Shown here: piece after piece, positions 11,117-14,143 of the stretch
How the letters are laid out: each line of letters opens with the position of its first letter
Numbering within the stretch: the first letter of the stretch is position 1
Origin: Terriglobia bacterium
GTDB taxonomy: Bacteria > Acidobacteriota > Terriglobia > 20CM-2-55-15
DNA length: 64,000 nt
Direction: 5' to 3'
NCBI GenBank assembly: GCA_963664115.2
Contig: CAXWPJ010000006.1
Coordinates: forward strand, 96,001 to 160,000
Translations under genes and position numbers: made by a program
Notes under the pieces: generated by a model
Told to the model about the DNA's origin: nothing
Databases searched by the model: none
The model's input: the letters and a program-made list of their open reading frames with translations, nothing else

Positions 11117-11446
11117 TCAAAGCTCCGCCCACTTGCCCTCGCCTTCCCACACCCGGACAGTGAACGCAAACGTGAACTTGTCGGCCAGCTTGGTTCGTAG
11201 AAGCTCGCATATGTTCTCAACGGAAGGGTACTCGATAAAGTCGTTCAGGGACGTGTGATCGTAGAGGCTCAATACGGCCCGCAGGTCTTGTTTCATCAGA
11301 TCGAAGTCGAGGAGCATGCCCCCCGGACCGGTCTCCCCTTCGATGATGATCTCGACCTTGTAAGTATGACCGTGAAGCTGCCCGCACTTGGGGTGCCCAG
11401 GCAGGAAATGAGCGCAGTCAATGTGATCTGTAATGCCGAGTTTCAT
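11117..11446 (-). CDS. queD: 6-carboxytetrahydropterin synthase / PTPS family
   Basis: AHFL...C..LHGHTY, DH..LN, PSVEN, VWE motifs. Confidence 0.9.
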   Translation of the reverse strand: MKLGITDHIDCAHFLPGHPKCGQLHGHTYKVEIIIEGETGPGGMLLDFDLMKQDLRAVLSLYDHTSLNDFIEYPSVENICELLRTKLADKFTFAFTVRVWEGEGKWAEL

Positions 11447-11712
11447 ACATTAAAATAGGATGGGGCCCACCGGCCCCTCTAAAAGCAAACAATTAAGAGT
11501 GCACTAACAGGGACGCTATGCCGTGATGTAAGGAACTAGGACGCCGGCCGGTCCCCCCATGCCGCTTGTTGTTCGATTATGCCTGAATTGGCGGGGGCCC
11601 ACCGGAGACTTTGAGCGTAGACCTTCAGTGCCCACCAACGGCAGACTTGTTGTGGCTCGCTTAGAATAGAGCAAAAAAAAATGCAGCCGAAGCTGCATTT
11701 TAAAGTGAAGAA

Positions 11713-11742
11713 CGAATCCCCCATCAGATGATGGGGGATTCG
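11713..11742 (-). terminator. Hairpin terminator downstream of peptide gene 1
   Basis: CGAATCCCCCATC-AGAT-GATGGGGGATTCG perfect inverted repeat; minus strand continues TTCTTCACTTT. Confidence 0.8.
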
Positions 11743-11751
11743 TGGAATGCT

Positions 11752-11898
11752 TTAGCGACCGCCGTGGCCGCCACCGCCGCCTTTGCCTTTACCACCGGGG
11801 AACGGCCAAACAAGTTCGCCGGGAGCAATGCGCTCTTCTAATTCTTCTACTTTGATTTCGAGTTCGAGTTCGAATCCTTCGATATTCTTCGGTTCCAT
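11752..11898 (-). CDS. Putative RiPP precursor peptide 1 (48 aa): MEPKNIEGFELELEIKVEELEERIAPGELVWPFPGGKGKGGGGGHGGR
   Basis: Hand-translated; RBS AGGAGG upstream, terminator downstream; paralogue differs mostly at synonymous positions across the core. Confidence 0.88.
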   Translation of the reverse strand: MEPKNIEGFELELEIKVEELEERIAPGELVWPFPGGKGKGGGGGHGGR

Positions 11899-11926
11899 CC
11901 TGTTGTCCTCCTGACAGTAAGTATAC

Positions 11927-11953
11927 TTATCGGAGCGTTCGTCCTAAGATTCA
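11927..11953 (-). promoter_or_regulatory. Possible sigma28-type promoter for peptide gene 1
   Basis: Minus strand TGAA-N15-TCCGATAA versus consensus TAAA-N15-GCCGATAA. Confidence 0.35.
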
Positions 11954-12208
11954 CGCTCTAACAGAACCCCTCCGAAAAGGAGTCCGACGCTTGATTGCCC
12001 GTCATGGGAGCCCTGCGCTGAGCGGAAGCATATCATGGTCGACACGAGTGAGTACAAGCAAAAAAATACCTAAAACATCCGCCTAATCTAATATAAATAA
12101 AGTAATTATAGTTATTAATGTTATGAGGCGTTGAGATGTCTGAATTAGCTGTATTTGCTTGGAAAATCAAGGTCGGAGCCTAGGGAAAAGGCCTGTTTGG
12201 TCTGCACT

Positions 12209-12244
12209 AAAAAAAGCCCCCGCCAGACTGACGGGGGCTTTTTC
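12209..12244 (-). terminator. Intrinsic (bidirectional-looking) terminator downstream of peptide gene 2
   Basis: AAAAAAAGCCCCCGCCAG-A-CTGACGGGGGCTTTTT. Confidence 0.88.
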
Positions 12245-12258
12245 TTAATTTGCGACGC

Positions 12259-12405
12259 TTAGTGACCGCCGTGGCCTCCACCGCCTTTGCCTTTCCCGCC
12301 GGGGAAGGGCCAAACGAGTTCGCCGGGGGCAATCTTCTCTTCCAGCTCTTCTATCTCAAGTTCGAGGTCGAGTTCAATTCCTTTGATTGTGTCCTTAGGT
12401 TCCAT
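12259..12405 (-). CDS. Putative RiPP precursor peptide 2 (48 aa): MEPKDTIKGIELDLELEIEELEEKIAPGELVWPFPGGKGKGGGGHGGH
   Basis: Hand-translated; RBS AGGAGG upstream, terminator downstream; paralogue of peptide 1. Confidence 0.88.
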   Translation of the reverse strand: MEPKDTIKGIELDLELEIEELEEKIAPGELVWPFPGGKGKGGGGHGGH

Positions 12406-12527
12406 CCTGTTTCGTCCTCCTAATAAGAGTTATTCCCAATACGGGCACTGTTATGTTTCGGAGACACGATGCTTGTAAAGACTTTTCTGCAAAGCTCTTC
12501 TGTAGGGAGCTGGCCATTCGCCCCTCT

Positions 12528-14015
12528 TCATTCGAAGTAGTTGCCGAAGCGTTCGGCCAGATCGATCAAAGTCTTGGCGCCAAAACCGATCCCGCCCGCT
12601 TCGTAGTATTTCCAGGCCTTGTCTCTCATAAACGGACCGGCGATATCCAGGTGGGCCCATGCGGTTTTTTCAGGTACGAATTCCTGGAGAAACAGGCCGG
12701 CAGTCGAGGCGCCTGCCATCGCACCTCCAATGTTATTGATGTCCGCATATGGCGTGTTGAGCAAGGCCTTGTATTCCGCTGGAAGGGGCAGCTCCCAGAA
12801 GCTTTCTCCATGGTTTTCGCCTGAGGCGGTCACGGCGCGAATGAGCTCCGGGGAATTGCCCATGACGCCGGCGATACTTTGTCCCAGTGCACGAACACAA
12901 GCGCCGGTGAGCGTTGCGATGTCGACAATATGGGTTGCGCCCTCATCCCCCGCCAGGGCGAGACCGTCGGTCAGGATCAATCGTCCTTCCGCGTCTGTGT
13001 TGTCGACCATGATCGTCTTGCCGTTACGCGCCCTGAAAATGTCCCCGGGGCGCTGGGCTTCGCCGTCCGGGGAGTTTTCCGCCGCTGGAACGATGCCCAC
13101 GACGTTCACATTGGGTTTCAGTTTCCCGATCGCCTTCATCGCAGCCAGAACCGCCGCGCCTCCCGACATATCGCCCTTCATTTCGAACATCCGGTCAGGC
13201 GGTTTCAGAGAGATGCCTCCCGTGTCGAACGTCACACCTTTACCGACGAGAGCCAACCGGTGAGGTGATCCGTTGGCGCGATACGACAGACGTATCAACC
13301 TGGGTTTATTGGCGCTGCCCTTACCGACCTCGATCAGGCCATTAAAGCCTTCCTTCTTTAATTGATTGGCGTCCCAGATACGGACGTCCAGCTTGGATTC
13401 TTTGGCAATTGCGCGAGCATCTTCGGCCAGTCGCGCCGGCGTGACTACCGATCCCGGCTCGTTGATCAGATCCCGAGCGTAGTTGACGGCTTCCGAGACA
13501 GTCGTGTAACGGTCGAGATAGCGCCGGTTCTGTTCATCGTTCGATTTCAAGGTGATCAGATCCACTCTCATCTTGTCGAAGAAATCTTGCCGTTCTTTGT
13601 TGTCCTTCTTGTAGCTGTCAAAGCAATACGCGCCCAGAATCGCCCCTTCCACAGCCTTTCCAACAAAAGGAGCGGCGGCTTCTGTATTCATGACGATCGA
13701 AACCCGTCGCAGTCCATGATCGCGGGCGGTGTGTATCGCCTTTGCCACGTAAGTTTTGAGGTTTTCCCAGACGTTGAATGCCGGGTCGAGCGACGTGGAA
13801 TATACAGCAAGGTGAGTGGCCGCGCTCTTTCCCGTACGCGGGGCGAAGTATTCCCGGCGTTGCCGCTTCGTCCTGAACTTTCTCCGGAGGCCGTCGACGG
13901 TCGCTGCCAGGGGAGACCGTCCCAGGTCGTGTAGACGTGTTTCCTTGTCGAGTACGATCACAAGAAGGTCTGTCTTGACCTTCTGCGGATTATCATAGCG
14001 GAGTTGAACTTTCAT
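12528..14015 (-). CDS. pepA: Leucyl aminopeptidase (M17)
   Basis: LVGKGVTFDTGG, MKGDMSG, NTDAEGRL, DIATLTGA, WAHLDIAG. Confidence 0.96.
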   Translation of the reverse strand: MKVQLRYDNPQKVKTDLLVIVLDKETRLHDLGRSPLAATVDGLRRKFRTKRQRREYFAPRTGKSAATHLAVYSTSLDPAFNVWENLKTYVAKAIHTARDHGLRRVSIVMNTEAAAPFVGKAVEGAILGAYCFDSYKKDNKERQDFFDKMRVDLITLKSNDEQNRRYLDRYTTVSEAVNYARDLINEPGSVVTPARLAEDARAIAKESKLDVRIWDANQLKKEGFNGLIEVGKGSANKPRLIRLSYRANGSPHRLALVGKGVTFDTGGISLKPPDRMFEMKGDMSGGAAVLAAMKAIGKLKPNVNVVGIVPAAENSPDGEAQRPGDIFRARNGKTIMVDNTDAEGRLILTDGLALAGDEGATHIVDIATLTGACVRALGQSIAGVMGNSPELIRAVTASGENHGESFWELPLPAEYKALLNTPYADINNIGGAMAGASTAGLFLQEFVPEKTAWAHLDIAGPFMRDKAWKYYEAGGIGFGAKTLIDLAERFGNYFE

Positions 14016-14143
14016 CAGCCTTGGGTCCTCCAAAGTTATAGGGCGAGATCGCCCTCCATCATACGGGTAGACCTCATATCCGACAACGTTAGTGGCTGAA
14101 AGAAGGACCTGTTCTGGCCTCGAACTGGGCGATCTTGGGCCTT

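Follow-up and report, generated by a model that had tools for sequence, protein, structure and literature searches.

The window analysed here, a 64,000-nucleotide stretch of a Terriglobia genome (G000), contains two genes for peptides of 48 amino acids that combine a leader found beside RRE-M50-HlyD genes in relatives with a short conserved head, and the hexapeptide of that head, ELVWPF, also stands in the pro-region of two secreted S8 subtilases of the same genome. We consider the best explanation, with a probability of about 0.4, to be that the genes encode an exported, unmodified signal peptide of 7–9 residues, which would be cut at the AP end of its leader by an RRE-M50 protease and recognised by a cognate S8 subtilase. 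The peptides do not look like enzyme-modified RiPPs; they are probably unmodified and would serve as a peptide signal or a protease regulator. With this reading, a set of small precursors that is undescribed and found across the family acquires a concrete, testable processing route.

Two conserved precursor genes and their relatives

Both 48-residue reading frames are present on the minus strand as originally predicted, gene 1 at 12259..12405 and gene 2 at 11752..11898. The leader extends to Pro27 in the product of gene 1 and to Pro26 in that of gene 2, followed by the head GELVWPF (12304–12324 and 11800–11820, respectively) and a Gly/Lys/His tail, the C-terminal residue being His or Arg. Each frame has a GGAGG site ahead of its ATG and a hairpin with a T-run past its stop codon. 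For gene 1, the sequence and an alignment place the ribosome-binding site (GGAGG...ACAGG) at 12406..12421 on the minus strand, and a likely intrinsic terminator was read from the sequence at 12207..12243 on the same strand, a hairpin that is absent from the list of our hairpin scan and at which Rfam attenuator matches are sub-threshold only. Gene 2 is preceded by a conserved minus-strand region (11899..12060) with promoter-like hexamers and a short stem whose loop contains the ribosome-binding site; four of the five pairs of this stem are kept in all eight sequences and none varies, so the stem has no covariation support, and a Rfam scan of the region returned no family at the gathering score. 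The same region has two GGA motifs, which resemble CsrA sites; a weak test with a short pattern found no CsrA-like gene. Downstream of gene 2 are two terminator-like hairpins (11678..11743, minus strand), one of which the hairpin scan places at 11743–11712. An M17 leucyl aminopeptidase gene (pepA, 12528..14033, minus strand) upstream and a queD/PTPS-like gene (11117..11446, minus strand) downstream provide synteny landmarks and are given for context only.

The claim that selection acts on the peptide was borne out. Over the 20 identical codons from IAP onward, genes 1 and 2 differ by seven synonymous and no non-synonymous changes, and a third copy on another contig of the same genome (G000:C10:411022-411165) differs from window copy 2 at 6 of 14.5 synonymous and 1 of 48.5 non-synonymous sites. 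Across the leader and head of 14 distinct DNA variants, the uncorrected pN/pS is 0.32, with pN below pS in 90 of 91 pairs. At the sequence level, both frames are confirmed as real genes under purifying selection. Expression is only hinted at: a metatranscriptome contig of 259 nucleotides spans a homologue of copy 2 (108 of 123 aligned letters alike) at a depth of 92, its neighbouring contigs having depths of 3.5–3.8, in data that consist of contigs only and allow no ranking of genes from depths. Other RNA runs yielded short pieces only (X2, X3) or nothing (X10).

Homologues were looked for and are present in 28 of the 34 other genomes of the same Terriglobia family, as judged by a profile built from 24 homologues, which matches 1 of 26 genomes from other families of the class. 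Against 1.84 billion representative proteins, the profile produced 160 matches at E ≤ 0.001, and the named relatives carry the labels Terriglobia or Acidobacteria. Most copies read in relatives' loci sit between pepA or an aconitase-like gene and queD; several homologues are located away from this position, and with positional evidence only, we rejected a functional link to pepA, queD or queA. Neither Pfam nor NCBIfam has a family for either window peptide (P0001, P0002), a comparison with the NCBIfam precursor models, daptide precursor models included, gave no match at E ≤ 1, and the ESM Atlas holds unnamed clusters only, at 0.80–0.83. In the literature accessible to our search, we found neither the family nor its hexapeptide match to S8 enzymes described.

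The C-terminal end of the leader follows the consensus EELEx[KR][IV]AP, with EELEE[KR]IAP as the form found beside RRE-M50-HlyD fusions. Heads and tails were parsed from 150 listed of the 160 matches: 112 of those listed have a single parsable leader, which is followed by a [ED][TL]V[LWF]P[LF] head in 77 cases and by other cores in 35. The commonest head among the matches listed is ETVLPL (61 of 77). Past the final PL or PF, 13 of these 77 stop at once and 64 continue for at least five further residues, with none in between, the tails being rich in Gly, Pro, His and Arg. This pattern identifies the head as the conserved unit, with the tail behaving like a dispensable appendage. Conservation of the core is limited to its first 7–9 residues, at odds with the product of 21–22 residues that had been proposed. 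This behaviour of the tail also argues against a fixed GGH metal site, another part of the original prediction; among the 77 parsed members of the matches listed, 9 have GGH or GHG in the tail and 13 lack a tail altogether.

The same leader is found on other cores. Some 20 multi-repeat precursors carry NHNET-type cores (P0034, P0046, P0048, P0058, P0061, P0062, P0087 and others), one of which exceeds the ammosamide leader cut-off, and a literature search returned nothing relevant on them. G000 itself has a second same-leader family with Cys-containing cores of 45–50 residues (C5:298134-300599, C5:58669-58869 and C11:140035-140679; L002–L004), whose tandem arrays on C5 and C11 have been interrupted, either by insertion sequences or by a frameshift. 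An eroded leader-like frame, lacking a start codon and lying behind an insertion sequence (G000:C10:414596-414682, L001), is likely a pseudogene of the peptide family.

The leader and its probable partner

An RRE-type leader would suit the precursor of an enzyme-modified RiPP, cross-linked or PEARL-extended, or of a metal-binding peptide, and some same-leader peptides in other phyla do adjoin a FliB-like or other methyltransferase, and a radical SAM gene is found close to one family copy (L142). We nevertheless regard this reading as very improbable. No modifying enzyme was found beside the gene in the window or in the relatives' loci read, where the neighbours are pepA, queD and a TPR gene and where, at the level of the locus, DapB, DapC, DapD and DapM are absent. 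The genome, which is 97% complete, returned no match for PqqD, SPASM, YcaO or DUF692 in searches with positive controls; SPASM radical SAM proteins (TIGR04085) are among these absences. It also had no match for LanB (PF04738) or LanC, for which the control genomes were blank too, and its single P450 is unlinked to the precursor genes. The W-x-F cross-link that had been suggested is not supported: no SPASM radical SAM enzyme was found, and the W-x-F motif itself is present in 4 of 77 parsed heads among the matches listed. Membership of the PEARL/ammosamide type was likewise not supported: short relatives score 15–16 bits against a cut-off of 30 for the ammosamide scaffold model (NF033737).

Three further loci (L068:7917-9733, L069:8092-9471 and L072:7645-8757) comprise a large protein with the leader motif close to its N-terminus and, in other phyla, same-leader peptides that adjoin a FliB-like lysine methylase in one case and a methyltransferase in another. 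We considered the C39 transporters of G000 as the exporter and rejected them, since they sit with a double-glycine peptide locus; there, a bacteriocin-like double-glycine peptide is found with ABC, C39 transporter and HlyD genes in a duplicated arrangement (L045:6592-12328 and L046:7038-12772, on C9 and C10).

A different partner emerges from gene neighbourhoods. Contig C4 of G000 encodes a 760-residue protein with M50 and HlyD domains, residues 9–376 of which match the model of the daptide intramembrane protease at E 1.7e-67, with 228 bits against a cut-off of 300. Its first 101 residues are predicted, at a pLDDT of 91, to fold into three strands and three helices, and the top structural matches of this domain are PqqD and lasso leader-binding proteins (TM 0.61–0.68, best E 4e-3, none under 1e-3). 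The predicted model is therefore that of an RRE, in line with the earlier idea of an RRE-bound leader; a search of G000 found two RREs of this family and no more.

Directly behind the M50-HlyD fusion, two congeners encode a short peptide that shares the leader (cores SEIWWPF and SGSLWPF). The presence of fusion and peptide agrees in 29 of 34 family genomes, 25 having both the peptide and the M50 gene and 4 neither, with 3 having the peptide only and 2 the M50 gene only; the four that lack both belong to one genus and hence count as one event. In other phyla, as labelled, leader peptides adjoin the same fusion in 5 of 10 loci, one of them with seven tandem copies. The recurrence of this linkage within the family and beyond it upholds the view of the peptides as precursors with an RRE-type leader ending in AP, and we are confident that the leader serves, or once served, as the tag for the RRE-M50-HlyD protein.

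Ten family genomes share the order fusion, short same-leader peptide and membrane protein of about 815 residues. HD-GYP, GAF and GGDEF domains were detected in the three of these membrane proteins that were scanned, and their membrane part resembles MASE9, which we treat as a lead. The operons concerned (L132, L133, L135–L139, L151, L312 and L313), in which the peptide mostly has a core of 7–13 residues, are candidates for a peptide-to-c-di-GMP circuit. On contig C2 of G000 (L048:7411-20000), a complete operon of TolC, adaptor, GAF-HlyD, RRE-M50-HlyD and SecA-like genes precedes the gene for a LEPR-XLL giant protein. The motif at the N-terminus of this protein is similar to the peptide leader, which hints at very small and very large cargo using one kind of machine. 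The literature search returned no paper that combines RRE, M50 and HlyD. The RRE-M50-HlyD module is widespread, and the literature found names no substrate for it; in the present case, a leader, predicted cut sites and a cognate secreted protease can be set beside the module, together with a candidate c-di-GMP receptor in relatives.

In the clade of the window, this apparatus is damaged. A survey of 22 of the 28 genomes with a match found the RRE-M50-HlyD gene disrupted in 9 of 11 genomes of the genera g1, g4 and g10, which have PF-type heads, each disruption being different, and 10 of 11 fusion copies in other genera without a break in the assembled part; of the neighbouring control genes, some of them housekeeping, 58 of 60 were intact. 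In the fusion of G000, about 25 conserved C-terminal residues are replaced by an insertion sequence and no short peptide follows; contigs from three of four DNA runs stop in the same insertion-element end, without formally bridging the junction. In all five genomes of the genus, the candidate receptor gene is either lacking or fragmented; the short peptides that accompany it differ, in most genera, from the ELVWPF head.

The pathway may be decaying in this genome, and the genes could be small, intact leftovers of a peptide system that an insertion-sequence-rich clade is losing, with no working pathway now in this organism. Besides the broken exporter and receptor, the early end of one of the two S8 frames of G000 and the interrupted same-leader paralogues on C5 and C11 would fit such a history, as would the size of the gene, which at 150 nucleotides is a small target for lesions. 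We hold it to be rather unlikely, because three copies are intact with a strong synonymous excess, the upstream elements are conserved, a relative offers a hint of RNA, and the RRE and M50 parts of the G000 fusion remain one open frame with an HExxH motif.

A shared hexapeptide in secreted subtilases

Two secreted S8 subtilases of G000, encoded on C11 and C2, read AP-ELVWPF-GGR right behind the prodomain, and window-type peptides read AP-G-ELVWPF-PGG at the matching place. The signal peptide and the D/H/S motifs of these enzymes were read from the sequence, and the S8 domain was identified by a domain scan. Across the six frames of G000, the pattern [ED][LT][VI][WF]PF has five occurrences, namely the three peptides and the two S8 proteins, and the chance expectation for ELVWPF is 0.035 per genome. 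This match between an S8 pro-region and a conserved peptide head is, as far as our literature search reaches, new, and an exact match of this kind that tracks lineages is unusual.

The S8 family concerned occurs in 21 of the 34 family genomes and in none of the 26 others. In genus g4, DTVFPF is found both in five S8 proteins and in the peptides of their genomes; in genus g10, the S8 proteins read ETIFPF and the peptides ETVWPF. When 17 S8 proteins of the clade were compared with a peptide of their own genome, eight matched at 6/6 positions, two at 4/6 and seven at 2/6 or less, and the eight with a full match reached 3–5/6 against peptides of other genera. In three congeners (G001, G002 and G004), the S8 gene lies inside the peptide locus; these three proteins lack the Pro of the motif and are among the seven without a match. 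A tree of 27 S8 catalytic domains places the motif in a single clade only (support 99) and implies about two concerted changes; with about two independent events, the covariation is suggestive rather than statistically shown. Of 47 linkers parsed from 80 metagenomic S8 loci, 45 have no such motif, which is therefore not a general S8 feature; the fetched flanks of these 80 loci, many of them short, contain no leader peptide. In addition, seven of nine genomes of genus g7 have peptides and no match for this S8, and many genomes with ETVLPL peptides also lack it.

The residue after PF is mostly Gly, Ser or Ala in the S8 linkers and Pro in all three G000 peptides, and a Pro at this place would hinder cleavage by a subtilisin. 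A model of the S8 protein (pLDDT 81) resembles ProN-Tk-SP (E 6e-27), and a run with pLDDT under 50 begins right after Phe74 of the motif (residues 75–84). In this model, self-cleavage could fall either before or after ELVWPF; a profile alignment to solved pro-subtilases did not reach the linker. Separately, S8 loci L213–L277 show a near-invariant Pro at a fixed distance past the last prodomain strand, followed by a hypervariable linker, in a set for which the search pattern itself required Pro and in which some rows lacked it; as a sequence pattern, this may indicate an unusual specificity of S8 self-cleavage.

Proposed processing route, alternatives and known systems

In the reading that we prefer, the leader would dock on the RRE-M50-HlyD membrane protease-adaptor encoded elsewhere in the genome, the M50 domain would cut after AP, and the core would be passed outward. 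The cognate secreted S8 subtilase would then recognise the head, and an unmodified peptide of about 7–9 residues, GELVWPF or a little longer, would be released as a cell-to-cell signal. Most known examples of such peptide signalling come from Gram-positive bacteria. Several observations weigh against such a route: the precursor genes are orphans, so that their pairing with the fusion would be in trans; the exporter is disrupted in 9 of 11 clade genomes and the candidate receptor is lost in the genus; 7 of 17 clade S8 proteins have no match and two match at 4/6 only, the exact matches amounting to about two independent events; and Pro follows PF in all three G000 copies. From the S8 match, one would expect either a maturation protease dedicated to an unmodified signal or a natural subtilase inhibitor of very small size.

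The inhibitor is unlikely in our estimate. Here, the head would be a free copy of the S8 propeptide end that regulates the protease, with ELVWPF filling subsites S6–S1 and the Pro blocking cleavage, as a competitive inhibitor or an in-trans switch. The difference after PF, Gly, Ser or Ala in most linkers and Pro in the G000 peptides, would suit this role, as would the low-confidence run that starts right after Phe74, the lack of the in-cis motif in the three S8 proteins encoded beside peptide genes, and a function that is independent of the lost receptor. There are two precedents: an inhibitor entry (1bh6) whose title indicates that subtilisin accepts Pro-Phe at P2-P1, and the LIPY/F motif, with its central Pro, that blocks intracellular subtilisins (PMC6220982). 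However, the LIPY/F pattern fits only 1 of 77 heads among the matches listed, and the peptide family is older and wider than the S8 match, with 61 of 77 heads being ETVLPL in lineages whose S8 proteins lack the motif; with the exporter damaged, the peptide would also need another route to the Sec-secreted enzyme. Alternatively, the S8 protein could release or expose the same hexapeptide from its own pro-region, in which case a single receptor or binding pocket would be served by both protease and peptide. At the prodomain end, a near-invariant Pro precedes the motif and Gly-Arg follows it, which would make the motif excisable, and LicP puts a linker Trp into a pocket after self-cleavage (PMC6054071); however, no receptor for PF-type heads was found and the candidate is lost in this genus, and we find the idea improbable.

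A broader proposal, which we advance tentatively and at odds well short of even, is that an exported peptide of 7–9 residues and a secreted subtilase have arrived at the same hexapeptide by convergence, and that the peptide, as an in-trans copy of the propeptide end with a gene of its own, switches the protease off or on. If so, leader-directed M50-HlyD peptide export of two-membrane bacteria would be tied to the control of extracellular proteolysis.

Among known systems, several resemble the present one in parts. The ammosamide/lymphostin PEARL scaffold peptides (NF033737) share an acidic leader, and the short relatives reach 15–16 bits; they remain below the cut-off of 30, no PEARL was found (in a search whose control was blank), and the core here is long past the motif. 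RiPPs cross-linked by radical SAM enzymes or P450s differ in that G000 has no SPASM protein, its P450 is unlinked and an aromatic x-x-x motif is not conserved (W-x-F in 4 of 77). The LIPY/F pro-peptide of intracellular subtilisins (PMC6220982) likewise places a hydrophobic-hydrophobic-Pro-aromatic motif in a subtilase pro-region. Its pattern, [LVI]-[IFLV]-P-[YFH], is not fitted by VWPF but is fitted by the DTVFPF and ETIFPF linkers and by 1 of 77 heads; the S8 proteins described here differ in having a signal peptide and a folded prodomain with a structure like ProN-Tk-SP, and their motif also occurs in a separate gene.

Kamneva et al. 2015 described a type I secretion-related module of M50/HlyD, GAF-HlyD, TolC and SecA_DEAD proteins, for which the accessible part of the paper (PMC4452313) names no RRE, leader or substrate. 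The M50-HlyD protein class is the same, and all four components (M50-HlyD, GAF-HlyD, SecA_DEAD and TolC) are found in one locus for the C2 paralogue of G000, a complete example beside the LEPR-XLL giant protein. They are not found together at the C4 and peptide loci: the C4 gene has no adjoining SecA, TolC or GAF partner and is linked in relatives to short peptides and an HD-GYP/GGDEF gene.

Two further systems offer parallels. In daptides, the leader, with its motif ELExMEAP, is removed by an RRE-fused site-2 protease (10.1101/2023.03.08.531785). The peptides described here have a similar, not identical, acidic leader that ends in xAP (EELEE[KR]IAP) and several precursors per genome. An RRE-M50 homologue of MpaP/DapP (NF041824), similar over 370 residues, is encoded in trans; it scores 228 bits, below the cut-off of 300, and is truncated at its C-terminus. 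Unlike in daptides, the protease is fused to a HlyD adaptor, the precursors are orphans, the host is a two-membrane bacterium, the invariant C-terminal Thr is replaced by His or Arg, and no DapB, DapC, DapD or DapM was seen at the locus. In lichenicidin and cytolysin biosynthesis, a PCAT is followed by a secreted S8 protease (LicP/CylA), an order of exporter-then-S8 processing that is reviewed in PMC10885120; LicP cleaves itself at NTAVNE and its substrate at NDVNPE (PMC6054071). An exporter-linked protease, a secreted S8 enzyme with triad motifs read from the sequence, and a pro-region hexapeptide like that of the substrate, here with a 6/6 match, are common to both. In our case, however, the M50-HlyD fusion takes the place of the C39-ABC transporter, the peptide cluster contains no C39-ABC and LanM (the C39 transporters of G000 belong to the double-glycine locus), there is no lanthionine chemistry, and the shared hexapeptide is the conserved head and probably the product, whereas in LicP/CylA systems it is a discarded leader remnant. 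By analogy, the peptides of the window would work like daptide leader removal joined to a second processing step of the LicP type, as a member of neither family.
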